Part shown: positions 16,445 through 39,505 of the stretch, in pieces | How positions within the stretch are numbered: position 1 is the first letter of the stretch | Layout: each line of letters begins with the position of its first letter | Origin: Candidatus Bathyarchaeia archaeon | GTDB taxonomy: Archaea; Thermoproteota; Bathyarchaeia; TCS64 | NCBI GenBank assembly: GCA_050014495.1 | Contig: JBEKDF010000026.1 | Location: 1 to 40,435, forward strand | Direction: 5' to 3' | Length of the DNA stretch: 40,435 bases | Made by a program: the position numbers and the translations under genes | Notes under the pieces: generated by a model | What the model was told of the DNA's origin: nothing | What the model saw: the letters and a program-made list of their open reading frames with translations, nothing else | Database searches by the model: none

Positions 16445-16610
16445 GCGGAATCAATTAAACAAGCCAGTGTAGGGTTAAAGACTAACGGATTCAAATTCAG
16501 TTTTGTTTCCTAAATCGCGCGTGCCAATGCGTGATCTACTCCTGTTGGCGTTGCTCATCGAAAGCTGATCTAGAAAATCGCGCGTACCTACCATAGCTAA
16601 TTTAGTTTCG

Positions 16611-19205: not shown

Positions 19206-19302
19206 CCTTTTCAGATATCAGCTTGGAAAGGCAAGTTAAAAATCGAATAGCTCGCGACCATAAATTTAAACCACATTATCGGGCAAATCTATTTCGGTTA
19301 TA

Positions 19303-19554: not shown

Positions 19555-19773
19555 CCATTATAACATATTCATAAATCTTAATCCAATAGCCCATTAATTT
19601 CTGCGTAGTGTAAAAACAGGTCAATTGGTATTTATTGGGGAGCGCGCACGAACGAGAGAGCGTGCGACGCCAATCACATCGAAATAGCTGAACAGACATT
19701 TGGAACCTATGATCGGCATCTGCTCGACGAAGTCGTGAGGCAACTATGAAGCTGGTTTGACCCATTACCATTA

Positions 19774-21234: not shown

Positions 21235-21246
21235 GTTGAACACCAC

Positions 21247-21915: not shown

Positions 21916-22195
21916 ATAGAACTCGACTAACCTGATTTAATCATTAATATGCGCGCGCGCAATCGCGTATATGGTGCACGTTGGATTTTCCGTTAGTTCA
22001 AATCTCACCGCTTAGAGTGCATGCACATTCATTCGCCTAGGAAACATTTAGCGGTCTTGGCATAGCTTTTCACTTACTAGCTTACCTGTTGACTGAAATG
22101 AGCATTAACTTCACTCTTACACAACGCGACTGCATATCAGAAAAACAATTTAACTTTTTTCAAAATTATTAAGTAATCTCCTTGCGAGTCTTGCC

Positions 22196-23440
22196 CTACT
22201 CAAATTTCTTAAAGACCTTGGCGAGTGGAACATGTACAATATCCGAACGGAAATGCTGTGGACCCCACAGCTTAAGGCCCATCGGCGTTTCCCACCTATC
22301 ATCGGTCTTAACTCCAATCACCGCGACTTTTCTGCCGGCTTCCCACTCAGCAGGCCAAAAGTTCTGAAGACCCCAACCTGTTTCCACATCGACAATATTA
22401 ACACCGTCCGGGCTCGTAACATATGGCTTGCCGTCGAGCCATGATAGTTGATTCTCGTTCTTGTACCATATCTTCATATCATGTCCGGCATAGGCGCCAG
22501 TACCCTTAATTTTTGAGACTCCCCATATGAAGCTGAACTTACCCTCCTGCCAGTAGTCAAATATCTCTCCCTCGAACAGTTTGAAGCCGATGGGGCCCAG
22601 TGCTTTTAGCATCGCCTCGACTGGACTCTTCTTAGATTTAACAGCCCCCCGAACCTCCTTACCAACCTTCATAGCAAGGGACTGTGTACCTGGGAAGGCT
22701 GCCTTCTTTAGGTCCGATCCTCTGACAGCGTGTACGCCCCTCGTTGTACCACCAGAGTAGGTTGATATGCCCTCGACTATCTCTTCCATACGCTGGAAAC
22801 ACAGAGTCTCCTCGAGGACCAGCATATCCCCCCACATGGTTGTGAACACAGCTGGCGTGCATGGGACATTCGTTAGGTTCAGACCGTTCTGTGAAATCTC
22901 AGGGGCTGCCCTGTTGCCCGCGACCGTTGCATCAATGAAGGGCTTATCCTTTCTCGCTAAGCTCACCAAGAGCCTGAGGAAGGCAGGGGCGATCTCGAAC
23001 TGTATGTGGGAGTATGGCTCCCCTCCGATGAGTTCTTTGAGTTTTGTGTCTCCTCTCTCATTATAGTCCGGGCTAGGCATCTTCGACCATGTATTGAGTG
23101 GACACCACTCACGGTCGGCCTGCATTATTTGATCCTTGATCCTTGCGGCTTGGTCCACGGAGTAATGGAAATCTCTGGCCAACCTCTGCCTAGGGTTGGC
23201 TGAGAACTTTTCCATCATTTCGGTCTGGATACCACCACCAGTTCCACAGTCGGAGAAAACAATCGCGTCATCGTGGATCTCCTTAAGCTCAACGAATCCA
23301 AGTTTATGGCCCTCATCAAGAACTGGCTGGATTGTCTTATCCACGGTCTCTAGGGAGGGAGCTACCTGGCCTCCGCCGGTTGAAAGAGTCGTGCAACCAA
23401 ACATGTAGTTGAGTACATCTTCCTTACTTAGATACCTCAA
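22196..23440 (-). CDS. DUF917 family protein
   Basis: GCTTLSTGGG N-terminal motif, RAAPEI, WYKNENQ, SPDGVNIVD and C-terminal GPQHF. Confidence 0.8.
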   Translation of the reverse strand: MRYLSKEDVLNYMFGCTTLSTGGGQVAPSLETVDKTIQPVLDEGHKLGFVELKEIHDDAIVFSDCGTGGGIQTEMMEKFSANPRQRLARDFHYSVDQAARIKDQIMQADREWCPLNTWSKMPSPDYNERGDTKLKELIGGEPYSHIQFEIAPAFLRLLVSLARKDKPFIDATVAGNRAAPEISQNGLNLTNVPCTPAVFTTMWGDMLVLEETLCFQRMEEIVEGISTYSGGTTRGVHAVRGSDLKKAAFPGTQSLAMKVGKEVRGAVKSKKSPVEAMLKALGPIGFKLFEGEIFDYWQEGKFSFIWGVSKIKGTGAYAGHDMKIWYKNENQLSWLDGKPYVTSPDGVNIVDVETGWGLQNFWPAEWEAGRKVAVIGVKTDDRWETPMGLKLWGPQHFRSDIVHVPLAKVFKKFE

Positions 23441-23580
23441 ATCAATTCCCCCGAATAGAATTGAACTTTAACGGAATAAAAAAATATGCTATTATAACAT
23501 GTGTGCTGTTAATAGATAGGGTGAAATGGACTTTCAAAGCCTTTACAAGTCTCCCTTCCTGAGAACTCAACCGCCGTGAG

Positions 23581-23763
23581 CGATTAAATATCAAACTAAG
23601 TTATGATAAATTCAAACGCAATAAGTAAACACAAGTTATACAATAGAAGATAGAAGCAGCAAAAACAGTTATTCCGTTAAAACAGTCTTAATATTCACAT
23701 CTTTTATTTTTATATAAAAGAGCCGGGCGATAGAAGTATTCAACCGTTTTAATTTATCATAAA
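23581..23763 (+). repeat. att-like repeat, copy A (partial: 162-bp inverted-repeat-bounded module only)
   Basis: Ungapped hand alignment of 23601-23762 gives 132/162 identity to copy B and 123/162 to copy C. Confidence 0.9.
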
Positions 23764-23916
23764 CGCGCGCGCAGCGGCTAGTGTGACGATTGCGGCTGTC
23801 TATTACATGTTCACGCGCGCACAGTTCCCATCGGGGCGCGGGTGAACCTTCTCCGAATAGTGATATTGATTTAAAACGCCGTGATTGGTAACATAACTTT
23901 GAGAAGGTGAAGATGT

Positions 23917-24132
23917 TTGGAAAAATCTGAGACTAAGAAGATGTTAGAGAACGCTGTAAAGGTTACAGCCTCAATCAGACCTGATATGGAGGAGCTTTTA
24001 GGCATTCAAGCGAAGATAATGTGGGCTTATTATAACCAGCTCAAAAATGAAGGTTTCACGGATGATCAATCGTTTGAACTGGTAAAAAATGCGGCACCCA
24101 AACAGTTAGAGGTAAAACTCAAGAAACAGTAA
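23917..24132 (+). CDS. Small hypothetical protein (YxxLxxEGFTxDQ motif)
   Basis: 71 aa, AGGTGA ribosome-binding site and TTTAAAA box upstream. Confidence 0.7.
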   Translation: MEKSETKKMLENAVKVTASIRPDMEELLGIQAKIMWAYYNQLKNEGFTDDQSFELVKNAAPKQLEVKLKKQ

Positions 24133-24212
24133 TAGTGGAAAACATGTGGGGGTTCGCTAGTTTTTCTTTTCTCTCAATAGCCTTATCCTCACTTCCACCT
24201 GCTACTCAACCA

Positions 24213-24284
24213 TTACTTGATTGGCTGACCTACCTCCAGTCAGTGTCATACATCGCTGGAGCCTTAGGAGTAACAGTAGCCTCC
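24213..24284 (+). pseudogene. N-terminal remnant of the Bathyarchaeia-expanded 'LQSVSYIAGALGV' (DUF4760-like) membrane-anchored family
   Basis: Translation LLDWLTYLQSVSYIAGALGVTVAS recalled as resembling this family's N-terminus; the rest is missing. Confidence 0.55.
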
Positions 24285-24340
24285 GCTACCTGGCCCAAGA
24301 GCTTCATAAGCACCCGGACCCGATCCATAAATCGATCAAC

Positions 24341-25084
24341 TTGTACTCTGAATCTCACTGCCACCTCGGCGACATGAGCCCCGAAGACGTGAAGAGAGCC
24401 GAGGATGCACAACTCGCCCTCATGATAACTATGGGCTTGGATGAGGCATCCACAAACATCGCGTTGAAGCTGGCGAAGAGGCACCCAAGCATACGATTAA
24501 GCCTCGCAGTTCACCCCTGGTACAGCGATGAGTTAACTGAAGAGACTCGAAAGATGTTCCTGAGGCTCGCCAAGAACCCTGAGGTGGTCGCCATAGGGGA
24601 GACGGGTCTAGACTATACGGGGAGGATGAGTCACCAGTGGGTCAAGGAGGAGAAGTATGTGGATAAGGAGACTCAGATGGCGACGTTCCGCGCCCATGTA
24701 GGGCTCGCGAGGGAGCTGAGCCTCCCGGTCATCGTTCACGACAGGGCGCCGGGACAGGAGGTCCTAGACCTCCTCGAGGAGGAGGGCGCGGCGAAGACCG
24801 GGGTCATAATCCACGGCTTCTCCAAGGATAGGACGTATGCGCTGCGATGTGAGAGACTCGGAATCTACCTCTCCCTCGGGCTCAGGACCCTTCAGGCGCC
24901 TCCCCCCGGTTTCGAGGAGACAGTAAAGCACACCCCCATGAGGCTTATTGTCACTGAGACCGATTCCAATAAGCCCTGGGAGGTTGTGAAGGCCTGTGAG
25001 ATCGTTGGTAGAATGAAGGGTCTTACCATGGAGGAGGTCGGCTCCGCTGCGACGGGGAACCTCCGTCGACTCACTAAGCAATAG
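24341..25084 (+). CDS. TatD family metal-dependent hydrolase
   Basis: Motifs ESHCHL, AVHPW, AIGETGLDY, IVHDR, IIHGF and VTETDS. TTG at 24341 places HxH at the N-terminus. Confidence 0.92.
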   Translation: MYSESHCHLGDMSPEDVKRAEDAQLALMITMGLDEASTNIALKLAKRHPSIRLSLAVHPWYSDELTEETRKMFLRLAKNPEVVAIGETGLDYTGRMSHQWVKEEKYVDKETQMATFRAHVGLARELSLPVIVHDRAPGQEVLDLLEEEGAAKTGVIIHGFSKDRTYALRCERLGIYLSLGLRTLQAPPPGFEETVKHTPMRLIVTETDSNKPWEVVKACEIVGRMKGLTMEEVGSAATGNLRRLTKQ

Positions 25085-25379
25085 TTCTCGTCGTTTCAGC
25101 GTGCGCCCCTTGTGTTTTTGCTATAGCCTCATCCTCGGCTCCATCTTAGTAACTAACCTCTAGAAGTCAGTTATGACCGGCACACAGACGATCGTGAAGG
25201 ACCACAAGTAATAAAATATATTAAAATAAACTATTATTTAACTAACTATCTCACGTTTTCTTACAGATTTGCGCGCGCACTCAAGAAAAACTGGACAAAG
25301 CATTCGAAGAACTCGATACGGGCACATTCATCAAAACCAAAAAGCTAGTAAAACCATATTGATGCATGAGACACGCGCG

Positions 25380-25658
25380 CGTGGTTACTTCACCTCAAGG
25401 TTTGATGGCTCCCCGCCTGAACGCTGGGCCACCGACTTTGAGGAGTGGCTTACTGATAAGGTGGAGAAGGGAGACAACAAGTCTCTGTTCGACTATCGAA
25501 GTAAGGCCCCGCACCCAAAGAAAACCCAACCCCGACCTAACCACATAACGCCTCTGATGGTAGCGGTTGGTGCAGCGGGCATTGATGCTCCTGGGATAAA
25601 GATACAGGGTAGCTGGACATGGGGCGACCTAAGACTGGGTGCTTACCAATTCGAATAA
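25380..25658 (+). pseudogene. C-terminal remnant of a LigB/YgiD-type extradiol dioxygenase
   Basis: WATDFEEWL...DYRSKAPH...PNHITPLMVAVGAAG; the N-terminal two thirds are missing. Confidence 0.8.
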
Positions 25659-25751
25659 TCTTACACACGCGCAACAAGTTTTGAATTCAACGAACACAAC
25701 AGTAACAACAGGTGAGAGGAGACGGGTATAGACGGATCAGACATCTACCAG

Positions 25752-26825
25752 GTGACAGAGTGCCCCATCCCATCAGCTTCAAGAAATCATCACGAGGGGC
25801 TGGATTCACTCCTGAGCCTGATGGCTAGCAACGGCTTAAAATTCTACAAGACACAGAGAGCGGCGGACCTCGGCGGAGAAGACGGGCTAATCGGCAGATC
25901 CGATGTGGTCCTCCTGAAGATCAACGCGCAGTGGAAGTACAGGGGCTGCACAAACACTGACGTCGCCAGGGGACTCGTCCAGAGGATCCTGGAGCACCCC
26001 GACGGCTTCGAAGGCGAGGTAGTCTTCATCGAGAACGGGCAGGGCGGCGGGAGCCTGGAATGCGCCTCCACGTGGGGTGGGCAATACCCGGACGCTAGCG
26101 TCCACGCGAACGCGGAGGACGAGAGCCACAGCTACTCATTCATCGTCGACGAGGTATTCGCGGACAGAAGGGTGTCGAAGTATCTGCTTGATCCGATCCG
26201 CGGAACCTTCATCTCCGGAGACGACCACGCGACCGACGGCTACAGGAAGCTGAATCCAGTATCCTACCCCTGCTTCACCACCGCAAAGGGCAACAGGGTC
26301 GAGCTGAGGGAGGGCATATGGAACGGCGAAGGCTACAACAATAACCTGAAGCTCATCACGGTGCCGGTGCTGAAGCACCACATGGGCTGCGGCATCACCG
26401 GCGCCCTAAAGGTCTTCTACGGGGTGCTATCCATGATGGACGGTGGATCCAGTCAGCGCCACTACGATAAACTGGGTCTGCACTGTGGCACAATGATCGC
26501 CAGGGTCAGGGCGCCGACGCTGAGTATCCTGGACTGCACCTGGGTCTCAGCGGGCTCACTGTCGGGCTACCCCGCCGAGACGACCACTAGACTCGACCAG
26601 CTACTGGCAAGCCGTGACCCGGTCGCTCTGGACTACTGGGGCTCCAAACACCTGCTATACCCCATAGACAACAACAAGGAGCATAACCCCGACGAGTTCG
26701 ATGTTCTCCACGACCACCTCGCCCAGGCCTGTGGGGTAATCAACTCCGCCGGCGGAATCCATGGGAATAGGGTGACCATGGAGGAGAGCGACATGCGCAT
26801 CCACAGCACACGTGGCTGCAAGTAG
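25752..26825 (+). CDS. DUF362 domain protein (possibly N-terminally truncated)
   Basis: Motifs VLLKIN, TNTDV, VPVLKHH, ITGALK and ASRDPVALD. Confidence 0.82.
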   Translation: MTECPIPSASRNHHEGLDSLLSLMASNGLKFYKTQRAADLGGEDGLIGRSDVVLLKINAQWKYRGCTNTDVARGLVQRILEHPDGFEGEVVFIENGQGGGSLECASTWGGQYPDASVHANAEDESHSYSFIVDEVFADRRVSKYLLDPIRGTFISGDDHATDGYRKLNPVSYPCFTTAKGNRVELREGIWNGEGYNNNLKLITVPVLKHHMGCGITGALKVFYGVLSMMDGGSSQRHYDKLGLHCGTMIARVRAPTLSILDCTWVSAGSLSGYPAETTTRLDQLLASRDPVALDYWGSKHLLYPIDNNKEHNPDEFDVLHDHLAQACGVINSAGGIHGNRVTMEESDMRIHSTRGCK

Positions 26826-26885
26826 CATTGCGTGTACACCCGGGTAATTCTTTTCAACATGATTCAATTAATCAAGGATTAGGGG

Positions 26886-27902
26886 ATGATGGAAGTGAAC
26901 TATCGTAGATTGGGGAAAACCGGGCTCAAGGTCTCAGAGATCGGGTTCGGCTGCGGCAATATAGGCGGCTTAATCATCCGAGGGACCCACCAAGATCAGT
27001 TAAACGCCGTCAAGAAGGCCTTGGCGACGGGCATCAACTACTTCGATACCGCCCCAAGCTACGGCGACGGAAGATCAGAGACCCACCTCGGCGACGTGCT
27101 CTCTGAACTCAACCCCGACATCATCCTCGCTACCAAGGTCGGCCTCACACTCGAGGACATGAGAGACGTAAAGGGAGCAGTGCAACGGTCAGTAGATGAG
27201 AGCCTGAGGCGGCTACGACGAAGCAGCGTCGACGTGCTCCAGCTTCACTCCAGGGTGGCATTGACGCGGAGCAGCGCGCCCTGGACAGGCGCATTAAGCG
27301 TCGAAGACGTCATCGAGGATAACGGCGTCGCAGATGCATTCGAAGCCGTCCGCTCTCAAGGCCTGACGCGCTTCATAGGCTTAACCGGCATCGGCGAAGC
27401 CGAGGCGCTACACAGGATCGTGGACAGCGGCCGATTCGACGTTCTGCAGGCTTACTATAACCTGCTGAATCCAAGCGCGGGGTGGAGCGTACCCAACGGA
27501 TTCAAGGGATACGACTTCAAATCAATCATGGATAAGGCAGCGGCGCGGGGCATGGGCGTGGCAGCGATCCGTGTGATGGCTGCGGGGGCCCTCGGAGGCA
27601 TCGAAGCCCGCGCCGGCTACGCTTCACCCACAGTTGGGGGGCCGCTAGTACCCAGCTCGGAGTATGAAAAAGATGAGGCCGCCGCGAGCCGCCTTAGTTT
27701 CCTAGTGTTTGGAGATGTTAAGAGCCTGCCTCAGGCTGCACTGAGATTCGTGTTGATGCACCCGGCGGTCTCGGTGGCTCTCGTAGGCTTCTCCAACCTC
27801 AGGCAAATAGAGGAGGCAGCCGAGTGCTCAGGAGCCGAGCCCCTCCCTAAGTCTCACTTGGATCGTCTGAAGAAAATTTGGGGTGAACTACCCATGACTT
27901 AA
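26886..27902 (+). CDS. Aldo/keto reductase
   Basis: Motifs LGKTGLKVSEIGFG, FDTAPSYGDG, ATKVG and VDVLQLH. Confidence 0.94.
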   Translation: MMEVNYRRLGKTGLKVSEIGFGCGNIGGLIIRGTHQDQLNAVKKALATGINYFDTAPSYGDGRSETHLGDVLSELNPDIILATKVGLTLEDMRDVKGAVQRSVDESLRRLRRSSVDVLQLHSRVALTRSSAPWTGALSVEDVIEDNGVADAFEAVRSQGLTRFIGLTGIGEAEALHRIVDSGRFDVLQAYYNLLNPSAGWSVPNGFKGYDFKSIMDKAAARGMGVAAIRVMAAGALGGIEARAGYASPTVGGPLVPSSEYEKDEAAASRLSFLVFGDVKSLPQAALRFVLMHPAVSVALVGFSNLRQIEEAAECSGAEPLPKSHLDRLKKIWGELPMT

Positions 27903-27914
27903 GTCATGCATACT

Positions 27915-27972
27915 CCATTTGATATTATCATAAATACCTAAATATTAGCAATAATTTGCCTAAATATTGCTT
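27915..27972 (+). repeat. att-like repeat, copy D (right inverted-repeat arm plus 11-bp repeats only)
   Basis: TTTGATATTATCATAAATACCTAAA...CTAAATATTGCTT matches 29470-29524. Confidence 0.85.
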
Positions 27973-28337
27973 AAAAACAAATTACATGGGAATTTTAAGA
28001 GATTAAATAAAGTCTTGCCCTCCAAAGTGGAAGTTTTTCTGTTACTGCAAATGCATTTCGATATACAAGGCCCTTTTCGATTGCGGGATGGGCGTGCACG
28101 GGTTTTCCGAGGTGGTGCATTGAGGCTGAGTATCTAAGTGATCGAATCCTTGAGTATGGGAGGGAGCGTCCGGAGGTCCAGATTGTTCCCAACCTTAACA
28201 CAGCCTCAGCGATTTCAAGATCCTGATTCAATAATCTTATCCTCACTTCCACCTGATACTCACCAATGAAAATGATGGCGCCACCCTCAAGTCGCACCCA
28301 TTAAATCTCTGACGCCACCCATACATCCCGATAAGCC

Positions 28338-29195
28338 ATGCCGAAAGCATCCAGACTAGGAGAAATCGCCTCTGACCCAAAGGTTGAGAAGATCCTCAGC
28401 GGATTCCAGTTCACGGAAGGACCTCTCTGGGATGACGGGAGACTTCTCTTCTCAGACATACCCGCAAGCACCATCTACAGCTGGAAGCCCGGTGTCAAGC
28501 ACGCCGAAGTCTACCGGAGACCAAGCGGCCACAGCAACGGGCTCACCCTAGACAGGTGTGGCCGCCTCATAGCCTGCGAGCACGACAGGCGCCTGACCCG
28601 CACCGAGCGGGACGGCACCCTGAAAGTACTCGCCGAAAGCTACGACGGCAGGAGGCTCAACAGCCCTAACGACGTCGTGGTGGCGAGGAACGGTGCCATC
28701 TATTTCACAGACCCACCATACGGCCTCAACGATGAGCTGGAGGGAAAAGAGCTGCCCTATCAGGGAGTCTACAGGCTGGGAGTCCGCGGGAAGCTGACTC
28801 TCTTAGACGACACCTTCGACCGCCCAAACGGCCTCGCCTTCAGCCCAGACGAGTCTAGGCTATATGTAGATGATACGGCGCGGCGTCACATCCGGGTCTT
28901 CGATGTACAGAGAAACGGATCCTTATGTAACGGCATGATCTTCGCGGAGCTTAGGGGTGCTAAGCCGGGAAACCCCGATGGTATGAAGGTCGATGTTCAC
29001 GGCAACGTCTACTGCACTGGCTCCGGTGGCGTCTGGGTAATCAACCCATCCGGTGAGGCGCTCGGCGTCATCGAAACCCCTGAGGTCTCCTCGAACGTCG
29101 CGTGGGGTGACGCTGATTTCAAGACTCTATACATTACTGCGCAGACCAGTGTCTACAGGGTAAGGACAGCGACAGGTGGCCTCCCACTAACCTAA
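28338..29195 (+). CDS. SMP-30/gluconolactonase/LRE family protein
   Basis: Motifs FTEGPLW, LNSPND, YFTDPPYG, PNGLAFSPD and PDGMKVD. Confidence 0.94.
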   Translation: MPKASRLGEIASDPKVEKILSGFQFTEGPLWDDGRLLFSDIPASTIYSWKPGVKHAEVYRRPSGHSNGLTLDRCGRLIACEHDRRLTRTERDGTLKVLAESYDGRRLNSPNDVVVARNGAIYFTDPPYGLNDELEGKELPYQGVYRLGVRGKLTLLDDTFDRPNGLAFSPDESRLYVDDTARRHIRVFDVQRNGSLCNGMIFAELRGAKPGNPDGMKVDVHGNVYCTGSGGVWVINPSGEALGVIETPEVSSNVAWGDADFKTLYITAQTSVYRVRTATGGLPLT

Positions 29196-29238
29196 TCTCG
29201 TACGTCTATCTTAAACTTAGAGTAAACTCACTTGCTTA

Positions 29239-29524
29239 TTACTGTTCGAGAAACAGTCATTTTATCGAGTAGAAGGTGGGTTACGGCCGGTCCACTCGAG
29301 CACGATTTTTACATCGAACTAAGTTATGATAAATTCAAACATGATTTGTAAACGCTGCATATATGATAGAAGATAGAAGCAACGAAAACGGTTATTAAGT
29401 TAAAACAGCCAACGGATTCACATCTTTTAGTTTTAAATAAAAAAGCCGGGCGATAGAAGCATTCAACCGTTTGATATTATCATAAATACCTAAAAATTGC
29501 CTAAAAAATAACTAAATATTGCTT
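29239..29524 (+). repeat. att-like repeat, copy B (full length, with rnpB 3'-end homology at 29271-29290)
   Basis: Hairpin ACTGTT-N5-AACAGT, core AGAAGGTGGGTTACGGCCGG, inverted repeats at 29324 and 29468, 11-bp repeats from 29487. Confidence 0.92.
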
Positions 29525-30014
29525 ATAAATTGCTTATTCGCGCACGCTTGAGCTGCTTATACTATATCCCATCCCATCTGTAGGCCTGTGGCTCCTCGCA
29601 TCCGCTGACGTAGAATCTCCTCAGGGCGGGGGAATGAAGGACTTCAACTTTTTAGGCGAGGGTGCGCTGGTTCACTGATAAAAGAATAGGCACGAACCAC
29701 GAGATGAGGGGGGAGTAAAAGAGGCGCGTGCGCGCGATTATGTAAGAGCTTGGGAGTGCACCTTGACTTTCAGAGATGAAAGATTCCCGAGTGCACCGAA
29801 TCCCCTGAAACCGAGAGAACAGAATTGGCTTCACAGAGTTCAGAGGCTAAAACAATCGTTTTCAAATGTGGGAGCGTAGGCGTGTCTAGACTGAATTTAC
29901 TGTGTTAGCATACTCTATTGGAATCTGGGGAGCCCTTGAGAACTTAGCTAGTTCTTCTGCTCGAGGGTTTGAACCAGAAATATATATTCTACTCCCTTAC
30001 TCAAAACTCTTAGA

Positions 30015-31385
30015 TTGTCGGAAATAGCGTTAATCTATCCATATACGGATCCGCCACGCAACAAATCGATCTTCAGGTTTCCGCCCCTCGGAATAGGCTA
30101 CATATCCGCCCACCTTCGTGATGCAGGGTACAAAAACTCTATTATCGACGCAACATTCATCGGCGAGAAAGAAGCAATCGCGAAGGTCAGGTCGCTTCAT
30201 CTCAGAATAATTGGTATCTACTCGATGTTTACCATGCGGGAAGCCAGCCTCCGATTCGCACGCGCCCTACGAAACGACTGCGACTTACTAGTCGCAGGCG
30301 GCCCACTCCCCACAGTTGAACCAGAATCCTATCTTAACGACTTCGATGTAGCCGCTGTCGGAGAAGGAGAGGAGACAACGCTCGAAATAGCGAGAGGGTT
30401 AAAACTCAGGGAAATAGACGGGCTTGTCTACCGTGAACGAGCTGGAAGGCCCCTGAGGCCTGGAGAGTCTGGTGGTGATGTAATCCACAACTCCCCACGG
30501 CGCGTCCTCAAGAACCTTGATGCGATTCCTCTACCTGCCCGAGACCTCTTTGACAATCAACACTACATAGGCTACTACAAGCAGAGAGGCGAACCCCCTA
30601 CGACGAGTGCAATAACGAGTCGCGGCTGCCCCTTTGCATGCGACTTCTGCAGCCACCCAATCTTCGGCGAGAGTTTCCGCGAGCGCAGTGCAGCAAACAT
30701 GGCTGATGAGGTCGAGCAGGTTCTCTCACTGGGATACGAGCGGGTCTTCTTCCAGGACGATTGCTTCACACTCACAAAGGGAAGAGTTACAAAGTTCTGC
30801 GAAGAGGTTGAGCGCCGAGGTCTTCGGTTTGGCTGGGAGTGCCTCAGCCGGGTAGACAGTATGGATAGAGATACCGCTGCCCGAATGCATGCTGCGGGTT
30901 GTGACCAAGTTTTCTTCGGACTTGAGTCCGGCAGTGAGAGGGTGCTTAAGATAATGAATAAGAGCGCCACCCCCGAGATGGGAAGGAGGGCAGTTGAGGC
31001 TGCCAAGGCTGGTGGTCTGAAAACGGGTGCCTTCTTCATCTTTGGTTACCCTGGCGACGATACTGAGTCGATGCTTGAGACGCTTCACTTCGCCAACAGC
31101 CTACCTTTGGACTACCTCAGTTTCACGTATCCTTACCCGATTCCCGGTACGCCTCTCTATGAGAGGGTTAAGGATAAGATGATGGAGGGGAACCCCGAGC
31201 CCCAGCAGAAGGGGCTCGTTCATCATCAGCTTATCTACTACAGTGAAATCCCGGAGATTAAACTCAAATTCGGTATAATAGAGGGTTTAACCATCCACTA
31301 CCTAAAGCTCCACTTTGGTCGTGTGGCGCCACTCTTAGTTAGACCGTTTAAATTCATAGGTGATGGGGTGTTCAGACGTCTTTAG
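30015..31385 (+). CDS. B12-binding radical SAM protein
   Basis: PPLGIGYI B12-domain start, GEGEET, TSRGCPFACDFC, FQDD, GLESGS. Confidence 0.93.
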   Translation: MSEIALIYPYTDPPRNKSIFRFPPLGIGYISAHLRDAGYKNSIIDATFIGEKEAIAKVRSLHLRIIGIYSMFTMREASLRFARALRNDCDLLVAGGPLPTVEPESYLNDFDVAAVGEGEETTLEIARGLKLREIDGLVYRERAGRPLRPGESGGDVIHNSPRRVLKNLDAIPLPARDLFDNQHYIGYYKQRGEPPTTSAITSRGCPFACDFCSHPIFGESFRERSAANMADEVEQVLSLGYERVFFQDDCFTLTKGRVTKFCEEVERRGLRFGWECLSRVDSMDRDTAARMHAAGCDQVFFGLESGSERVLKIMNKSATPEMGRRAVEAAKAGGLKTGAFFIFGYPGDDTESMLETLHFANSLPLDYLSFTYPYPIPGTPLYERVKDKMMEGNPEPQQKGLVHHQLIYYSEIPEIKLKFGIIEGLTIHYLKLHFGRVAPLLVRPFKFIGDGVFRRL

Positions 31386-31468
31386 ATCGATTATTGAGTA
31401 TATACGCGATCAAGTTTTTAGTATCTTTTGGTCCTTGTATTAGATAAATAATCTTTAGCGCATATAAT

Positions 31469-31774
31469 CTAAATCTCTACTTGAATCTGATCGCCTTCGA
31501 CTCTCACAAGGTAAGATGGCTCTGGCTTAGCTGCCGGACCCTTGTACACTGCTCCGGACTTCAGTTCAAAGGTTGATCCATGGCACACGCATCGAATTCT
31601 CATACCATCTATCGTTCCATCGCTTAACATGCATCCCCTATGCGTGCACTTCCCCCCAATTGCATAGTATTCATTCTCCAAATTAACGAGCAGAACAGGT
31701 TCACCAGCTAGAACTATACCCAGCTTCTCCCCAGGATTAAGGTCGTTGACGGATGCTGCTCTTCTGAACTCCAT
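31469..31774 (-). CDS. Rieske-type [2Fe-2S] ferredoxin
   Basis: CTHRGC...CVCHGSTF motifs and GPA. Confidence 0.93.
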   Translation of the reverse strand: MEFRRAASVNDLNPGEKLGIVLAGEPVLLVNLENEYYAIGGKCTHRGCMLSDGTIDGMRIRCVCHGSTFELKSGAVYKGPAAKPEPSYLVRVEGDQIQVEI

Positions 31775-31837
31775 CTTCTTGACTCCTAATGACTAGTTCA
31801 GTAGTTTGAATAAAAAATATGCGTGCGCTATCTGGCA

Positions 31838-32537
31838 TTAATATCCTGGGAAGATTTCGGTCTTCACTTGTTGTTGGCATCTTCAGATCCATTATCATAA
31901 TGTTGGTTAGATCGTCGACCATCTTCTGTGGGCCAGATATGTAAGTTACTCGGTCCATGAAATCTGGCACGACCCTACGCATCATATCTTCATTGATTCT
32001 CCCCGTTAGGCCGTCCCATTTTCCTTTCGGCTGGGTTATGGTGTAGATGATTTTGATTTGATCATTGTTCTTCTGCATGTCGTCCAGCTCGGCTTTGAAG
32101 GCGATGTCGTCCTCAGAGGTGTTGGAGTAGAGGAGTGTAATATCTGATTTCAGCATCAGATCAGTGCAATATCGCATAATGCTTCGGATCGGTGTAATGC
32201 CGATTCCACCGGTCAGCGCCAGGATCTTGGTGTACTCGCCCACGAAGGTGAAGTCTCCTTCGGGGCCATCAATCTCAACCTTTTCTCCGACTTTCAGGGA
32301 TGCAAGTGCGTTAGCGAACTCGTGGCCTGTGAGCCTTTTAGTCAACTTAAGGTGGGTTAATTCTGTGGGGCTGCTGGAGATTGTGAAGTGTTTCTCTGCT
32401 TTTTGGCCGCTGATTGTTAGTTCAATGTACATGTATTGGCCTGGCAGATAGTTGAATTCCTCTGGTCTGTTGAATCTGAGACTGATATCATTTGGAGTTC
32501 TCTGGATTATCTCCTTGACAACGGCCTCGAACTGCAT
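31838..32537 (-). CDS. FNR-like FAD/NAD(P)-binding oxidoreductase with a C-terminal frameshift
   Basis: Motifs PGQY, HFTISS, GGIGITP and ISGP. The canonical tail QVKTEIFPGY* is in another frame, ending at 31838. Confidence 0.85.
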
Positions 32538-32703
32538 GTCTGCTTCTTTAATTATTCGGGAAGAGTTGATAAAAAGGTTGGTCAGTGGCGCGTGCAAGTG
32601 TATATGTAGTGGGACCTTACAGCCTCACCCTCGCTCCGCTGCAGACGCGCGCACCATAATCAAGGTTTAATACCTATTTTTTCAATGGTAGTAACGTACT
32701 ACT

Positions 32704-34179
32704 TTGACCGGTGAAATCTCATCAAATAAAGGTGATAGAGGTGAGCAGGTTCTACTAGTGTTTCCAGGAAAGTACAATGTTCCAAACCCACAGATTCCCC
32801 TTTCGATACTACACTTGGCTGCTTACCTAAAGAGGAGTGGCTTCGAGGTAAAGATCCATGATATGAGAATTGAGAAGTACAACGACAATCTACTTCGGGA
32901 TCCCCTCTTCGTTGGAATAAGCTCGATGAGTGGCCACCAAATAAGATACGGACTGGATTTCGCTCGGAAAGTTAGGTATGTCGATGCGAAGATACCGATC
33001 GTGTGGGGAGGAGTTCACCCGAGTCTCTTACCGGAGCAAACCATAACAAACGAGTTTGTGGATGTAGTCGTACGCGGAGAAGGTGAGGAGACGATCGTCG
33101 ACCTCGCCAAGAGATTCGCCGCGAACCAACCGCTCGACGATGTAGCCGGTATAACCTACAAGGCTGAAGGAAAGATCAGGAGCAACCCCGATAGATCGCC
33201 AATTAATCTGGACGAGATCCCTGTAGACCTCCCATACGATCTCATCGATACAGAGCGTTATCCCTCAATCAAGTCAGGCCGATTCCACATACAGACGAGC
33301 CGGGGGTGTCCACATAGATGTGGGTTCTGCTACAACACTGTATTCAACAAGAGGAGCTGGAGAAGTAAGAGCCCTGAGAGGGTTCTAAACGAGTTCGAGT
33401 ACGTACTTGACAAGTATCCCCATATTAAATGTCTAGATTTAATCGATGACAACTACTTCGTCGACAAGTCAAGGGTGGAGGCCATTTGCAAGGGGATGCT
33501 TGAACGAGGAATTGACGCCACATGGCGCGCCGACTGCAGGTTTGACTACATGTCGAAATATGAAGAGAGTTTCATTAGACTACTCGAGAAGTCGGGGTGC
33601 ATCGAGCTAAACTTCGGCGCTGAGACAGGTTCGGACCGCCTCCTGGAGTTGATTCATAAGGACGTCACCACTGACATGATGTTCAAATCGGTCGAGAAGC
33701 TGAGGGACTACGCACCCTCCATCGAGCTATACGTATTCTGGATGAGTGGACTCCCCGAGGAAACTGAAAGCGATCTTGAAAAAACCTACGGGGTGATGGA
33801 GAGACTATCGGAGATAAACCGGAAGACGCAGCATGTTGAGATATGCATCTACACCCCCTTTCCCAGCCCGATGCTCACCGAGTTCGCATCAGATTACAAG
33901 CTCCCAACATCACTCGAGGAGTGGGGAGGTGTGGACGTGTTCCACTTCAGGCCCCCATGGCACGAAAAAGGCTACGTAGACAAGCTTGAGGCCATATCCG
34001 CAGTCACGAGGTACACCTTCTATCCCAAGGCCAGGATCAGAGAGATGAAGCAGCCATTTAGAGCCGGGTATAAACTAATGCATAGGGTAGCTAGCTTCAG
34101 GTGGAAACACAAATACTTCAGCTACCCAATGGAGCTGAAGGCCGTCAGCTCCCTATCTCGTAGGCTACGGGGCTACTGA
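32704..34179 (+). CDS. B12-binding radical SAM protein
   Basis: Motifs IPLSILHL, WGGVHPS, GEGEET, TSRGCPHRCGFC, DDNY and GAETGS. Confidence 0.93.
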   Translation: MTGEISSNKGDRGEQVLLVFPGKYNVPNPQIPLSILHLAAYLKRSGFEVKIHDMRIEKYNDNLLRDPLFVGISSMSGHQIRYGLDFARKVRYVDAKIPIVWGGVHPSLLPEQTITNEFVDVVVRGEGEETIVDLAKRFAANQPLDDVAGITYKAEGKIRSNPDRSPINLDEIPVDLPYDLIDTERYPSIKSGRFHIQTSRGCPHRCGFCYNTVFNKRSWRSKSPERVLNEFEYVLDKYPHIKCLDLIDDNYFVDKSRVEAICKGMLERGIDATWRADCRFDYMSKYEESFIRLLEKSGCIELNFGAETGSDRLLELIHKDVTTDMMFKSVEKLRDYAPSIELYVFWMSGLPEETESDLEKTYGVMERLSEINRKTQHVEICIYTPFPSPMLTEFASDYKLPTSLEEWGGVDVFHFRPPWHEKGYVDKLEAISAVTRYTFYPKARIREMKQPFRAGYKLMHRVASFRWKHKYFSYPMELKAVSSLSRRLRGY

Positions 34180-34180
34180 A

Positions 34181-35419
34181 GTGGGTGAAGCTAACAAAGG
34201 TACCACAAGTCACATCTCCAAGATTATAGACGGCAACGTCAATTTCGGCATAAAAATACCGAAGAGGTACCTAGTCTCCATTGCAGCAGTTCTTGTTATG
34301 AAGACTCTTGTGGCCATCATTGTATATTATTTGCTCAACCTCGGAGTCGTGGGAAGCTACTGGATGGACCAGACCAGAGTATTCTCAGGGCCTCAGAATC
34401 TTATCCTCTGGCAGAATCCTTATCACGCATCGAGCGGGGAGTACCTGTTCCTAGGCTGGGACAGCGCCTGGTATCTCAGCATCATCGCGAAGGGCTACTC
34501 CTTCAGCCCACAGAGCATCGCCTTCTTCCCGGGCCTGCCCTCGATCTCAGGCATACTAAACCTGGCTCTAGCTAACCCTGTCTCTTCCCTATTGATCGTC
34601 ACACTGCTATCCGGAGTTGCTTGGGTCCCGTTGTTTCAGGCTATCTCGGAACACTACATGGAAAAGCGCCTCGCCCTGGTATCGACGCTGATCTTTGCCC
34701 TCTCTCCCTTCACCCTCCTCTTCTCCACGGTGGCTTACGCCGAGGGATTGTTCTTACTCCTAAGCCTAGGTTCATGGTGGCTATGTCTCAAGGGTAGATT
34801 TGGCTCCGCCACGATTGTCGCTACAGTCTCCGCTACCACAAGACCGGTGGGACTTCTCCTCGCTTTACCCATTTTCCTCAAAGCGCTGAAAACCAAGCGG
34901 ATCAAACACATTTCCGAGAAACTTTACATCCTTGCTGCGCCTGGCTTAGGCTACCTGTCGGCGTGGGTAAACGGATGGCTCGTCACCGGCAATCTCTATG
35001 CTATCATCATGGTTAACGAATGGGGGACGATGTACAGTTTCTTCACTTTCATCACGAGGCTTCTCCCGGTCTATCTCCTAGGCTCATTCTCTATGATCAC
35101 ACAGTATCTCACTATAAACCCCCTACTACCCTACTTCATCATGCTATTCCTAATCCTGACACCGATCACCATCATCTATTTTATCAGAATCGACAAGGAG
35201 CTGGCGATTTATAGCCTAACATATTACATTGGGATTCTAGTCTTCGGAGCCATATTATCAATTCCACGCTACTTTTCCTTCCTCTTCCCGCTTTGGCTAA
35301 CCCCCAGTATCTCTCGAGCGTTTTCGGGGAAACGAATACTAATCCCTTACTTGATATTATCTGTGGCAATCACGATAATATTATGGCTGAGTTTCCTCAA
35401 CGGGGTCTTCGTTGGATGA
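34181..35419 (+). CDS. GT-C membrane glycosyltransferase (PIG-V/mannosyltransferase-like)
   Basis: Motifs WDSAWYLSII..GY, AFFPGLP, YAEGLFL and TRPVG; multiple TM helices. Confidence 0.87.
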   Translation: MGEANKGTTSHISKIIDGNVNFGIKIPKRYLVSIAAVLVMKTLVAIIVYYLLNLGVVGSYWMDQTRVFSGPQNLILWQNPYHASSGEYLFLGWDSAWYLSIIAKGYSFSPQSIAFFPGLPSISGILNLALANPVSSLLIVTLLSGVAWVPLFQAISEHYMEKRLALVSTLIFALSPFTLLFSTVAYAEGLFLLLSLGSWWLCLKGRFGSATIVATVSATTRPVGLLLALPIFLKALKTKRIKHISEKLYILAAPGLGYLSAWVNGWLVTGNLYAIIMVNEWGTMYSFFTFITRLLPVYLLGSFSMITQYLTINPLLPYFIMLFLILTPITIIYFIRIDKELAIYSLTYYIGILVFGAILSIPRYFSFLFPLWLTPSISRAFSGKRILIPYLILSVAITIILWLSFLNGVFVG

Positions 35420-35510
35420 CTCCAACTCGACGCATGTTGTTCACAATAAGGAAAACGTGACAGCCATAAGCTCGGGATTAAGTATAGGAATTCAACTCTA
35501 AGTAATACAC

Positions 35511-36959
35511 TTGGCTAATCTCGACAAACCTCTGTACGAAGAGTACACTCTTACTCGCTTTAACGAAGCGATAGCTAAGGAAGTAAAAAACAAGTGGGCT
35601 AGGATCTGGGGCATGTTGATTTTCTCGGGATCAACTATGGTCCTGTTCCCAGGGGGACCGAATATAAGAGACTTTGTTGACGCAGCCTTCTTCGCTACGA
35701 AGATTAGTTGGCTAATCCCTTTACCTTTGCTATTCATCCAGAGCATAGGGGTCAATAGGATCCTCACGCCGGGCCTTATGATTGACTCAAGGAAAATCAA
35801 GTACTGCAGGGATGAGTTAGGCACCAAGCGAATAATCTACACTATAACGACTAAGGGTGAGAACCTCACAACTCTATCCGACTCGTTTAACTCCACGGTT
35901 CATTGGATTACCGAGGTGAAGGACAAGTATCACCTTCAATTCACTTCAGAAGTTTGGGTCGTCACGGAGGAGGCTAATTATGAGAAAAACCGAAGTTTTT
36001 ACCGAAGCCTGGAGGAGAAAGGTGGCATAATCGTTGCCACTCCAAGGTCCTACACAACACAAAACAACTCCCACTTTAAGGCTAGGGCGCTCCAATATGC
36101 AGTAAAAACCAGGATTGAACGAGGCATCAACTCCCCAGAGGATTGGGTATACCACCAAGATACCGAAACCATGATCGGTGAGGACACTGTACTCGGTAAC
36201 TTGGACTTCATAAACGAGGCAAGCGATAGTCGCCTGATTGGCTCAGGCATAATACTTTACCCCCAAGATTGGCGGTACCAGTACAACTCGGTGGAGGAGA
36301 CCACAAGATCAGTTGGTGACATCAGCGCTTTAGGGCAGGCAGAGATGTGGGGCGCTGTCCCCTTCGGCTACCACGGCTCCCACTTCATTGTAAGGGCCGA
36401 TGTCGAGAATACAATAGGTTGGGACTTCGGCGATAACCGATCTGAGGATCTCTACTTTTGGTTACAGGTGAGGAAGAAGTATGGGTTGGTCGCTCGCCCT
36501 CTGAAGGGGTTTGCCTACGAGAAACCACCCTTGACATTCACCGATCACCTCAAGCAGAGAAGAAGATGGGTCCTCGGATCGATTGATGTTCTTAAGCGTT
36601 CAGATAATCCCATCAGATTCAGGGCCCCGCTCATCTACGGTCTTCTGTCATGGTTATCCGCTCTCCCCTCCTTAGCGGCTGCCATGCTGAGCCTAATTAG
36701 ACCTACAGGCGGCATTATCGATTATTTGGGGGGATTAATAGCCGGGTTCACCTGGTGGTCGATAATCAGTAACTACTTGGTTGGGTTAGAGATCCACGAG
36801 GTTTATGTCGAAAAAAAGGTGAATTGGAAGCTGTTAAGACTGATTTGGTCGGCGGCTTTAGGAATCCTAGCAGACGCTGTCTCCCCCTGGTATGCATTGA
36901 TCTGGAGAACAAAGGGTTACGATGAGGTTAAGAAGGATACGCGCGTCAACCCGGCTTAG
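35511..36959 (+). CDS. GT2 membrane glycosyltransferase (egghead/BRE-3-like beta-mannosyltransferase type)
   Basis: Motifs FKARALQY, WVYHQDTET, HGS, SED and QRRRW; N- and C-terminal TM segments. Confidence 0.85.
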   Translation: MANLDKPLYEEYTLTRFNEAIAKEVKNKWARIWGMLIFSGSTMVLFPGGPNIRDFVDAAFFATKISWLIPLPLLFIQSIGVNRILTPGLMIDSRKIKYCRDELGTKRIIYTITTKGENLTTLSDSFNSTVHWITEVKDKYHLQFTSEVWVVTEEANYEKNRSFYRSLEEKGGIIVATPRSYTTQNNSHFKARALQYAVKTRIERGINSPEDWVYHQDTETMIGEDTVLGNLDFINEASDSRLIGSGIILYPQDWRYQYNSVEETTRSVGDISALGQAEMWGAVPFGYHGSHFIVRADVENTIGWDFGDNRSEDLYFWLQVRKKYGLVARPLKGFAYEKPPLTFTDHLKQRRRWVLGSIDVLKRSDNPIRFRAPLIYGLLSWLSALPSLAAAMLSLIRPTGGIIDYLGGLIAGFTWWSIISNYLVGLEIHEVYVEKKVNWKLLRLIWSAALGILADAVSPWYALIWRTKGYDEVKKDTRVNPA

Positions 36960-37392
36960 CGAGTACATAGAGTTCAATATAGAGCAGAATGCCGATGGTT
37001 GCTGTCGTTGCCCATAGGATTATTGTTGGCTTCATAAATCTCCTGTTTTTTAGGCATTCGACCAGGGGTTTATTAAGTCTCCATTTCAATGCGAGGTAGT
37101 AGCCTAAGGTTAAGGAGACTGTTCCCAATCCAGCGTGAAGTATTGCAATGATTGAGAGCGGATTAGCGGGGTTAATTGCTATGAAACCCAGTCCTAATAG
37201 GAGTGAGGGCAGCATGATGGTGGCCAGTGATACGGTGTTAAGAGCAACTGCCACCGTCATGTATTTGCCATGTTGTTTGAAGTTCTTCCTTCTCGCTCTG
37301 CTTCTGCCTATTAATAGAAAGCAGAGAATCGCGATTTGAAGGATTAGGTTAATATCGGCTGGTATCCCGGCTGTCGTGCCTAAAAATCCCAT
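36946..37392 (-). CDS. DUF420-like 4-TM membrane protein
   Basis: Four TM helices, HGKYM, ILHAGLG and C-terminal GILLY. Confidence 0.72.
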   Translation of the reverse strand: MGFLGTTAGIPADINLILQIAILCFLLIGRSRARRKNFKQHGKYMTVAVALNTVSLATIMLPSLLLGLGFIAINPANPLSIIAILHAGLGTVSLTLGYYLALKWRLNKPLVECLKNRRFMKPTIILWATTATIGILLYIELYVLAKPG

Positions 37393-37452
37393 TTTATAGT
37401 ATAGTTATGTGATTAATTAATAAAAGTTGAGTGAACCAGCTCTGTGGTTCAT

Positions 37453-37780
37453 TTATGGTGCGGCGCCTTGTCCGCAGAAATATTCTTCAATCATGTTTGT
37501 TGTATTGTCGTAACTTGTATCCTATGAAGTTCTCACATACTGGGCAAGTACATATTTTTGTAAAGTCTAAATCTTTACAAGGTGACGCGCCTTTAGAACA
37601 ATATACTCCTGATAGTGACTTGGGCTCTGGAAGTTTCTTCCTAAGCTCGCTATCTGCGGATGCCTCCTTGATCATTAAACCAGCATCTCTCCCCATTTTC
37701 GAGCAGGGACTATCTAATTGCACCAGACAATTGAAACAGATACACTAGATAACAGTATCGAGGTTGAATGGAACCTTCAT
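37453..37780 (-). pseudogene. DUF2769-like Cys-rich protein, disrupted
   Basis: MKVPFNLDTVI*CICFNC...VYCSKG...CTCPVC. In-frame TAG at 37745-37747, plus a frameshift separating the YFCGQGAA tail. Confidence 0.8.
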
Positions 37781-37886
37781 GATTTTTCAATTATTCTTTG
37801 TGAATGGCGGTTTAAATTACTTAAGGAACCGTTCTCGCCTTGCCGCGTGCACCGTCAGTTTTAAGATTCTTCACCGGTTTTAAATA

Positions 37887-38735
37887 CTAATTAGGGTCTG
37901 TCCTCGGACCAATCTTTACCTTATAGCTGATAGAATCATGTCTCCTAAACGATAACGTCAAGCCTGCCCAGCTGAGCCTCCCCTTCACCCTCTCTCGGCC
38001 ACGCCAAAAACTAGCCCCCAATGGCTTAAGCACAGTGAATGATAGCCCTCCATCGAGAGTCGAGAGCGTAGCCTTCTCCGCATCAACCTTCTCCCAAGCA
38101 CCAATCTCGTTGTCGATAAGTGTAGAACTCAAGTCATCATATCTTCTAAACGTAAGGGCACCCTGCTCATTAAGTAACATCAACTCCTCACATCCTTCGC
38201 TAAGCTCCGTGGAGACATCAATCCCGATCTCATCCTGGCGGACTGAGTAGAGTACACTAACCCGTCCTCTCGATTGGGCGACTATGAAGCTCGTCCTCAC
38301 CCCAACCATGTTCCTGAGCTCCATTATCTTGTCGAAGAAGGGTCTCAGATAATTAAGGGACAGGTAAAGAATACTGAAAATACGGTGTGCAGGATGATAG
38401 ATGGCGTCGCTTATCCTTGATTCGCCGAGGCTTTTTACTGAGACGGTATCCAACTCATATATTTTCTCGATGATTGGATACGGATCGCTTTGGATCATTC
38501 TGAGTGTCGCTGAGCCGGGGAAGAGGGTTTTATCTCTGAATATGGCGATAGGGAGCCCAAAGCCCGCTCCCTCCTCTACGAGCTCCACACCTCCTTTGAC
38601 TAAAATCAAGGCCTTATGTATACCTGCTAACTCCAGGTTCCCTGGCCTCCGATCCGGGTAAATCCTGAGGGCGAATCCATTCGATAAGTCGATGGTTATA
38701 GACTCCGCCGATCTAACGTCACTGTCTCTCGCCAT
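37887..38735 (-). CDS. Hypothetical protein (beta-rich)
   Basis: 282-aa ORF with EEGAGFGLP, NEQGA and GRE...WAGL segments; no function recognised. Confidence 0.8.
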   Translation of the reverse strand: MARDSDVRSAESITIDLSNGFALRIYPDRRPGNLELAGIHKALILVKGGVELVEEGAGFGLPIAIFRDKTLFPGSATLRMIQSDPYPIIEKIYELDTVSVKSLGESRISDAIYHPAHRIFSILYLSLNYLRPFFDKIMELRNMVGVRTSFIVAQSRGRVSVLYSVRQDEIGIDVSTELSEGCEELMLLNEQGALTFRRYDDLSSTLIDNEIGAWEKVDAEKATLSTLDGGLSFTVLKPLGASFWRGRERVKGRLSWAGLTLSFRRHDSISYKVKIGPRTDPN

Positions 38736-38875
38736 CTCTTCACTATGAAGAATCTCATAGCGGTCCGCAATAAAGATGATAGAAGGCGCGCACTCTGAGA
38801 AGCAGAACCCTGAGCTTCGGTGCCGAATTGAGGAATTGACATCTCGCTAGTCTTATGCTTCGTTCCACCATCAAC

Positions 38876-39162
38876 TTACTGTTCGTCAAATAGTCATTTT
38901 ATTTCAGAAGGTGGGTTATGACCAGCTTATCAACAACTGCATTTTTGAGTATAGTACTAAGTTTTGATAGATCTAAACGCAATAAGTAAACGCCGAATAT
39001 GTAAAAGAATATTGAGGCAACTTGAGCGTTTATTACATTAAGACAACCTAAGAATTCATATCTTTTAGTTATGAGTAAAAGAGCCGGGCGATAGAAGCAT
39101 TCACCCGTTTGAATTTATCATAAATACCTAAATGTTACCAATTGTTTACCTAAATATTGCTT
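38876..39162 (+). repeat. att-like repeat, copy C (full length, with rnpB 3'-end homology at 38905-38926)
   Basis: TTACTGTTCG...AGTCATTTTAT, core CAGAAGGTGGGTTATGACCAGC, inverted repeats at 38962 and 39106, 11-bp repeats after 39125. Confidence 0.92.
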
Positions 39163-39240
39163 CTAAGTTGCATCTACGCGTATGGATGAGGCAAGAAAGT
39201 GGTATCTGGTAGATGTAAATAAATGCACGCGCGCATATGC

Positions 39241-39432
39241 CTAGCAGCCGACTGCAATCGATTCAAAGTCAATGAGTTTGGTCGTCACGCCGCCGCGGAG
39301 TTGCTTCGTTGCCGGATCCTTGATGGCCCTTACGGGCTGTCCCCAGTCGTGGAGTTCCTCGCTGACCCAATCTAAGTCATGGCCCATAGAGGTTAACTTG
39401 TCCCTAACTGATGGCGAAAATCTGCTATCGCT
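39241..39432 (-). pseudogene. C-terminal remnant, gamma-glutamyltransferase-like
   Basis: DSRFSPSVRDKLTSMGH...IKDPATKQLRGG...AVGC* resembles the GGT C-terminus. Confidence 0.65.
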
Positions 39433-39505
39433 CGCGCGTGGCTAACGCGCTCACTTGTGATTATACTTTTGAACCAATAAATAGTAGCTACTATCTTGGT
39501 TTGGT

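Follow-up and report, generated by a model that had tools for sequence, protein, structure and literature searches.

In streptococci, site-specific accretion of the ICESt1/ICESt3 type piles up cis-mobilizable elements (CIMEs) at one target gene; these bear attachment (att) sites but carry no genes for integration or transfer, and chimeric attI/attP-like joints separate neighboring elements (available text of PMC5704250). In the tycheposon islands of Prochlorococcus, newcomers displace older elements from the tRNA gene, leave partial tRNA copies and bring in adaptive cargo (available text of bioRxiv 2020.12.28.424599), and archaeal tyrosine integrases that target tRNA genes restore their target after insertion and can leave tandem elements at one locus (available text of PMC8371274). 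Integrons and clusters of attC sites lacking integron integrases (CALINs) also collect genes, with repeated sites, recombinase-less cargo and the newest unit at one end (available text of bioRxiv 2022.02.06.479319). Here we analyze an array that is like these systems in the features just listed: co-oriented repeat copies, named A, D, B and C, which separate accessory gene blocks in 40,435 nt of Candidatus Bathyarchaeia archaeon DNA (GCA_050014495.1, JBEKDF010000026.1; hereafter the window). The window is contig C26 of a genome, G000, that is 96% complete, and most sequencing runs containing its DNA are peat and wetland metagenomes.

We are confident that the array arose by tandem site-specific accretion at a tRNA-Cys gene. 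By analogy, CIME accretion appears to be the closest known system, because units without integration or transfer genes are stacked at the 3' end of one target and separated by att-derived joints; as for decay from an integrative and conjugative or mobilizable element, eroded ends are present, and neither an integrase remnant nor an autonomous parent was found. Compared to the CIMEs in the available text of PMC5704250, the host is archaeal, up to five sites occur per array, the cargo is metabolic, and the 17 stretches searched hold no autonomous partner and no integrase remnants. Tycheposons carry integrases and often replication genes, and their decayed islands keep integrase fragments (available text of bioRxiv 2020.12.28.424599), none of which we found here; moreover, the tRNA copy in our array is only 11 bp and lies inside long conserved arms. 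The short core at the amino-acid attachment end resembles that of SNJ2, yet the att sites here lie outside any integrase gene, and the available text of PMC8371274 describes no integrase-less arrays and does not mention "RNase P". Our search, which covered literature outside subscription journals, returned no paper on such arrays in Bathyarchaeia.

Repeat copies and layout of the array

The earlier note on this DNA had proposed four co-oriented att-like sites on an integron-like or tandem-accretion platform for non-autonomous cargo. All four copies are present where it placed them, far above chance (E from 6e-11 to 2e-48). Copy A (23590-23763) matches B with 82% identity over 174 nt (E 4e-44), B matches C with 74% identity over 308 nt (E 2e-48), and D (27915-27977) matches B with 83% identity over 63 nt (E 6e-11); the full repeats span 29239-29552 in B and 38876-39190 in C. 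A fifth copy lies on contig C3 of the same genome, where it matches B over 196 nt and then runs directly into tRNA-Cys(GCA).

The origin of the sites had escaped the note: they reproduce the 3' end of tRNA-Cys. On the minus strand, each of A, B and C has a P arm, then the final 11 bases of the tRNA-Cys gene, then a P' arm of about 130 bp (Table 1). This 11-base core comprises the end of the T stem, the acceptor strand, the discriminator and one further base; in B, 10 of the 11 bases match the tRNA gene and the mismatch is at the final base. Both arms are conserved and AT-rich. Each contains one 18-bp box, the two being inverted relative to each other, and the P arm has short direct repeats. 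Boxes inverted across the arms together with direct repeats in P are the layout expected of a lambda-type attP, and a core at the junction of T stem and acceptor stem is said, in work ascribed to Williams in 2002, to be a known target class of tyrosine integrases. The P' arm of B is 91% identical to the arm behind tRNA-Cys itself. B and C are thus complete att-like sites and A keeps its core beside a truncated P arm, whereas D has no core, so that the count of four att-like sites stands only in part. The P arm of A is broken off at a (GC)n run (23764-23771), and A is without the RNase P-like piece that in C occupies 38906-38930 (20/25 bases) next to a palindromic box (38876-38905).

Two further observations concern these sites. 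The tRNA and the attP-like sites share, in register, an imperfect inverted repeat of 7 bp whose 9-bp spacers differ. Between 9001 and 40435 there are 18 (GC)n runs, where base shuffles predict 10.9, and several of these runs coincide with broken arms.

The array can be followed beyond the window. Locus L070, from a second assembly, is 100% identical to the window over 11353 nt and extends via a further 551 nt to join the end of C3. The length of the array is thereby set at 39,048 bp between tRNA-Cys (G000:C3 117738-117811, followed directly by a P' arm of the same type) and the gene for inosine monophosphate (IMP) dehydrogenase. From the tRNA gene the order is a unit of about 9.0 kb, C, 9638 bp (the B-C core-to-core distance), B, 5723 bp, A, and 14.6 kb with accessory genes up to IMP dehydrogenase; D sits 1538 bp into the B-A segment. 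The region between 23581 and 39162 singled out earlier lies in the array, whose right edge is about 9 kb further out, at tRNA-Cys. In the unit next to the tRNA, apparently the newest, are ChrB, three ATP-binding cassette (ABC)-type transporters, a PadR-like open reading frame (ORF) and a major facilitator superfamily (MFS) gene, the ABC and PadR-like labels coming from the sequence. At the other end, no terminal core (at most one mismatch) or P arm was found in 9001-23600. Insertion at G000:C3:117801-117811 leaves tRNA-Cys without its encoded CCA; the majority of the other tRNA genes in the genome appear to encode one.

This geometry suggests how the array could have grown. The attP of an incoming circle (P arm, core and P' arm) would pair with the tRNA end, so that the new unit lands beside the tRNA, older units shift towards IMP dehydrogenase, and each insertion leaves a hybrid P-core-P' joint. 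Older units would then erode by deletion, often at (GC)n runs; A may have lost part of its P arm in this way, D its core, and the array its terminal site. The two units that would be newest (about 9.0 and 9.6 kb) keep both ends and are putatively excisable, given an integrase.

Could the array instead be a true integron cassette array, of the CALIN type with attC sites? It shares with CALINs co-oriented repeats between accessory genes and the lack of a nearby integrase, and CALINs are common in archaea (available text of bioRxiv 2022.02.06.479319). Nevertheless, G000, whose 96% completeness still leaves room for a missed gene, has no integron integrase (IntI) above the cut-off (best TIGR02249 match 53 bits against 265), A, B and C show no significant single-strand fold compared with shuffles (z 2.04, 1.34, -1.08, -1.44), and the site is a tRNA 3' end, with double-stranded attP arms in place of attI and attC. 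The units are multi-gene, from 1.5 to 9.6 kb, with genes on both strands; mostly single ORFs in one orientation would be expected of cassettes. We consider a CALIN to have next to no likelihood, and "integron-like" fails in its strict sense.

The same site in relatives

Eleven regions of relatives were examined, excluding L070, L072-L074, L078 and L079, which match the window at or near 100%. Five are without one of the two markers on the fetched stretch; in the other six a single stretch holds both, with 4.3-9.4 kb separating tRNA-Cys from IMP dehydrogenase and none of the A-C cargo between them. Both empty and filled states are found. The tRNA-Cys site of G012 is empty, and in L077 a single contig holds the tRNA with its P' arm, three joints and a terminal P arm with core, beyond which the next 200 nt are 85% identical to the DNA behind the unoccupied tRNA of G012. 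The tRNA with P' and two joints are present in G011, the terminal site and two joints in G002, and further sites in G016 and G013. Tandem accretion and att-derived sites, both parts of the earlier proposal, are borne out by these joints and by the layouts of L070 and L077.

The P arm of B recurs with 81-93% identity at another 15 of the 28 core sites listed, and 15, B included, share its P' arm type (65-91% identity). Units of relatives measure 1-3.6 kb with both arms well preserved, and their cargo differs: transketolase, aldehyde oxidoreductase, lyase, luciferase-like oxygenase, MmgE/PrpD, AAA ATPase and others. Truncated arms are seen in A, D, G013 and L077. Within the order, 5 of 79 genomes have the site; within the class, 4 of 401 match the P-arm pattern, and all of these belong to this genus. 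At least two other P' types and a second P type also occur at the tRNA-Cys core (L023, L028, L071, L075, L088, L027), which indicates that more than one element family uses the site.

Gene order conserved across the repeats in relatives that lack them, which the earlier note had taken as the sign of repeats inserted independently of the cargo, was not observed; in G012 the gluconolactonase and radical SAM genes are about 180 kb apart on one contig. An apparent case of conserved order across A and D, an S-Me-THD gene near gluconolactonase in G008 and G012 without att sites, was rejected: the S-Me-THD gene in the window is a distant paralogue (62-67% to the G008 and G012 genes, which are 91% to each other), and C33 carries a fragment that is closer. 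The DUF362 and aldo-keto reductase genes also adjoin each other in G009, where no arms accompany them, and since this pair sits inside one block it has no bearing on block boundaries.

These comparisons also bear on the idea that the repeats are miniature inverted-repeat transposable elements with 18-bp terminal inverted repeats. The 18-bp box does occur inverted on either side of A and B. Against this, the repeat splits exactly at the tRNA core into tRNA+P' and P+host forms, its homology extends beyond the boxes on both sides, its copies are limited to the tRNA-Cys interval in every genome, and order across B is not kept in relatives. Such a transposon origin is hardly tenable.

Integrase, movement and the RNase P RNA piece

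The units carry no mobility gene that we could detect. No tyrosine recombinase domain was found in the 17 stretches of array intervals, 121,802 bp in total (a profile of 12; best i-E 1.2), nor any integrase remnant; the profile matched three of three controls, one of which is in the profile. No Pfam mobility family occurs in the 36 scanned window ORFs or in the 22 scanned array ORFs of relatives and C3, which make up about half of the 53 listed, and none of the 13 PF00589 matches in G000 is on C26 or C3. These results support the earlier suggestion that the cargo is non-autonomous. We think that A-C are probably the joints of integrase-less units that were inserted successively at tRNA-Cys by a tyrosine integrase, likely from a passing helper element, and somewhat favor the view that the units move without an integrase of their own. 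The tRNA target, together with the repeats in the arms, suggests the enzyme class; our searches did not recover the enzyme itself.

A 2.5-kb transketolase unit bears on movement. It has both ends and is shared by G002 and L077 at 89.5% identity, with different inner and outer neighbors; the difference in its older neighbors fits separate insertions. As evidence that integrase-less units move, the comparison is suggestive only.

Several observations weigh against this reading. Third-position identity of the transketolase unit is 0.79 against 0.74, 0.62 and 0.60 for flanking host genes, a small margin that would permit descent with later rearrangement, and in G005 the transketolase gene is inverted and flanked by arms of other types. 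No arms were seen near the 11 G000 integrases examined, no integrase was linked to arms when the P-arm pattern was applied to 401 genomes, and no cognate integrase emerged from att DNA in 79 genomes of the order or in metagenome and viral scans; because no integrase could be tied to the arms, the helper is hypothetical. In relatives, 10 of 11 loci with cargo homologues have no arm and are mostly elsewhere, the exception being TatD in G013. The cargo has 75-91% nucleotide matches elsewhere in the genus, and insertion at tRNA-Cys leaves its entry between the arms unexplained. Finally, the two signs of excision that the earlier note had suggested, depth steps at the repeats and a B/C hybrid junction, did not appear in contigs of four runs, two of them possibly the window's own source: depth is flat (X1 10.7-12.7, long pieces) and no joint lies at any core. 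Contigs drop rare forms, so rare circles are compatible with both results. Nine joints seen in the run contigs all lie on a multi-copy 29-bp motif and were taken as repeat artefacts.

An alternative is that islands carrying an integrase inserted at tRNA-Cys and then lost the integrase and most of their body in place, leaving the arms as immobile scars. A three-step route of this kind is described in the available text of PMC5704250, and the truncated arms (A, D, G013, L077), breakpoints at (GC)n, gene remnants, missing terminal site and absence of excision signs all fit it. So does the palindromic box at the far end of P', which in G002:C42 directly precedes an integrase start; the arms may thus once have had an integrase gene at this end. 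On the other side, no integrase fragment remains in 122 kb, compared to the fragmented integrases of decayed tycheposon islands (available text of bioRxiv 2020.12.28.424599), the small units of relatives have both arms intact, and one integrase-less unit, that with transketolase, occurs in two arrays with different older neighbors. Pure decay therefore seems to us unlikely, and we retain successive insertion of integrase-less units as the preferred explanation.

The outer end of many P' arms holds a second piece of RNA gene. In B it copies the 3' end of the RNase P RNA gene, with 22 of 25 bases matching, and runs in the opposite direction to the tRNA. An RNase P-like piece can be recognized by eye in 9 of the 15 type-1 P' arms, namely those of B, C, the C3 end and six others, in some followed by a palindromic box, and in G013 up to 25 of 26 bases are identical to the RNase P gene. 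In G002:C42 the box and the RNase P copy lie directly before the start of a tyrosine integrase, and at 5 of 22 loci a relative of this enzyme follows the complete RNase P gene. On the simplest reading the piece would be a vestige: a parent may have joined a tRNA-Cys att site to the end of an element that targets RNase P, the integrase gene of which then disappeared.

It is tempting to speculate that the inverted RNase P-like site works as a second att site, through which an RNase P integrase loads or moves tRNA-Cys units. The frequency and the near-identity of the piece in G013 would fit, as would the position of the integrase family behind RNase P and beside box and core in G002, the RNase P arrays in the genus, and the decayed joint of RNase P type that comes after gluconolactonase in G008 and G012. 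However, 6 of the 15 arms, A among them, have no piece, the RNase P copy decays after 13-15 bases, the units of the window contain no partner RNase P-like site, the palindromic box is not between gluconolactonase and joint in G008 or G012, and what G000 offers nearest to the G002:C42 integrase is distant (best 25-32% identity). We regard a working second site as quite improbable. The broader form of the idea, natively integrase-less cassettes with att sites for both tRNA-Cys and RNase P RNA (inverted, 130 bp off) whose cargo helpers shuttle between two arrays, is doubtful as well; if true, such a two-address family would be an integron equivalent built from double-stranded attP arms, with an archaeal ribozyme gene as a landing site. 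We also discarded the RNase P RNA 3' end as the repeat core, because the repeat splits at the tRNA-Cys core, together with an inversion of 984-23580: in relatives the genes for tRNA-Cys, IMP dehydrogenase and RNase P are ordered and oriented as they are here.

The RNase P RNA gene is noteworthy in its own right. Its 3' end (window 984-1008; L080, L106, L110, L131-L136) is a hot spot of integration: several relatives carry it in tandem copies, five genomes have members of one integrase family immediately behind the gene, and in G013 and G009 a second integrase type has a frame starting inside it. The box with an RNase P 3' piece also occurs behind tRNA-Leu(GAG) in G003 and G015 and behind tRNA-Ala(GGC) in G011 (L007, L008, L084). 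No paper on RNase P RNA genes as archaeal att sites, or as a hot spot with its own integrase family, was found outside subscription journals.

Cargo, neighboring features and significance

The three cargo blocks and the gene labels given in the earlier note are confirmed (Table 1). Block A-D has lost its own P' end and core at D. In block D-B, similarity of the gluconolactonase region to upstream DNA of relatives begins abruptly at 28290. Block B-C encodes two B12-binding radical SAM proteins, a Rieske protein, an FAD/NAD oxidoreductase, a membrane protein, a family-2 glycosyltransferase, DUF420 and two unknown ORFs. The G+C content of DUF362 (0.597) and aldo-keto reductase (0.585) is in the top 1-2% of 1416 long genomic ORFs, and gluconolactonase (0.582) and TatD (0.569) are similarly rich. 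By block the values are 0.547 (A-D), 0.539 (D-B) and 0.482 (B-C), so the difference in composition reported earlier separates B-C from the others, while A-D and D-B are alike. Nor is the region "strewn" with gene remnants: comparison with G000 ORFs found only three (24068-24280, 28071-28231 and 39244-39429).

Table 1. Positions of the att-like sites, cargo blocks and other features in the window
Feature	Position	Strand	Remarks
Archaeal RNase P RNA gene	984..1278	-	origin of the 3'-end copies; relatives have integrations here
Older interior, IMP dehydrogenase to A	9032..23589		cupin and YNCE-like genes common to relatives
Site A, attP-like joint	23590..23763	-	truncated P arm 23731-23763, core 23720-23730, P' arm 23590-23719
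Cargo block A-D	23764..27914	+	small ORF, remnant 24068-24280, TatD, ORF, DUF362, aldo-keto reductase
Site D	27915..27977	-	P arm only, ends before core; incomplete att site
Cargo block D-B	27978..29238	+	DUF4760-family remnant 28071-28231, 29-bp motif 28228-28256, gluconolactonase 28338-29195
Far end of B P' arm	29239..29295	+	palindromic box 29245-29268, RNase P RNA 3'-end copy 29271-29295
Site B, complete attP-like joint	29313..29530	-	P arm 29454-29530, core 29443-29453, P' arm 29313-29442
Cargo block B-C	29553..38875	both	multi-gene, no mobility gene
Site C, complete attP-like joint	38876..39167	-	P arm 39092-39167, core 39081-39091, P' arm to ~38951
Inner end of newest unit (tRNA-Cys to C)	39168..40435	+	remnant 39244-39429; intact MFS gene exits window towards G000:C3
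29-bp motif copies	24174-24202 (+), 28228-28256, decayed at 38844		separate from att repeat

The 29-bp motif, which is non-palindromic with a sharp left edge and no hairpin, has 154 genomic copies at up to 6 mismatches, for example on G000:C75, C72, C74, C50 and C24. Close neighbors are co-oriented in 88 of 93 cases with a median spacing of 651 bp, and where an ORF follows, 67 of 97 copies precede one paralogous family of 170-190 aa (one member tested: DUF4760). Among other genomes, 10 of 17 in the genus and 1 of a further 53 in the family contain the motif. It could mark a second cassette system, larger than the tRNA-Cys array.

Elsewhere in the window, positions 1-984 behind RNase P are AT-rich with repeated short palindromes and glycine-rich repeats (425-516), as on C7, C16, C39 and C62, and are probably another inserted element. 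A trimethylamine methyltransferase family gene at 19774-21915 (TIGR02369 525.6 bits, cut-off 525) has no in-frame stop and adjoins a corrinoid protein gene, and Rfam PYLIS_3 matches at 20178-20277. A 48-bp inverted repeat, 88% complementary, lies at 4910-4957 and 5375-5422 with one arm within an arginine deiminase-family gene, and purH consists of two adjacent ORFs (5804-7470), likewise in relatives.

This kind of structure is already known from bacteria. Bathyarchaeia are uncultured, and little has been published on how they gain accessory genes; the locus points to a likely way in which these archaea collect metabolic genes. Public data supply the full set of states (empty site, tRNA-side end, joints and terminal end), and this set defines short att substrates for recombination testing. 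If integrase-less units do move as such, tRNA arrays would behave like integrons without being integrons.

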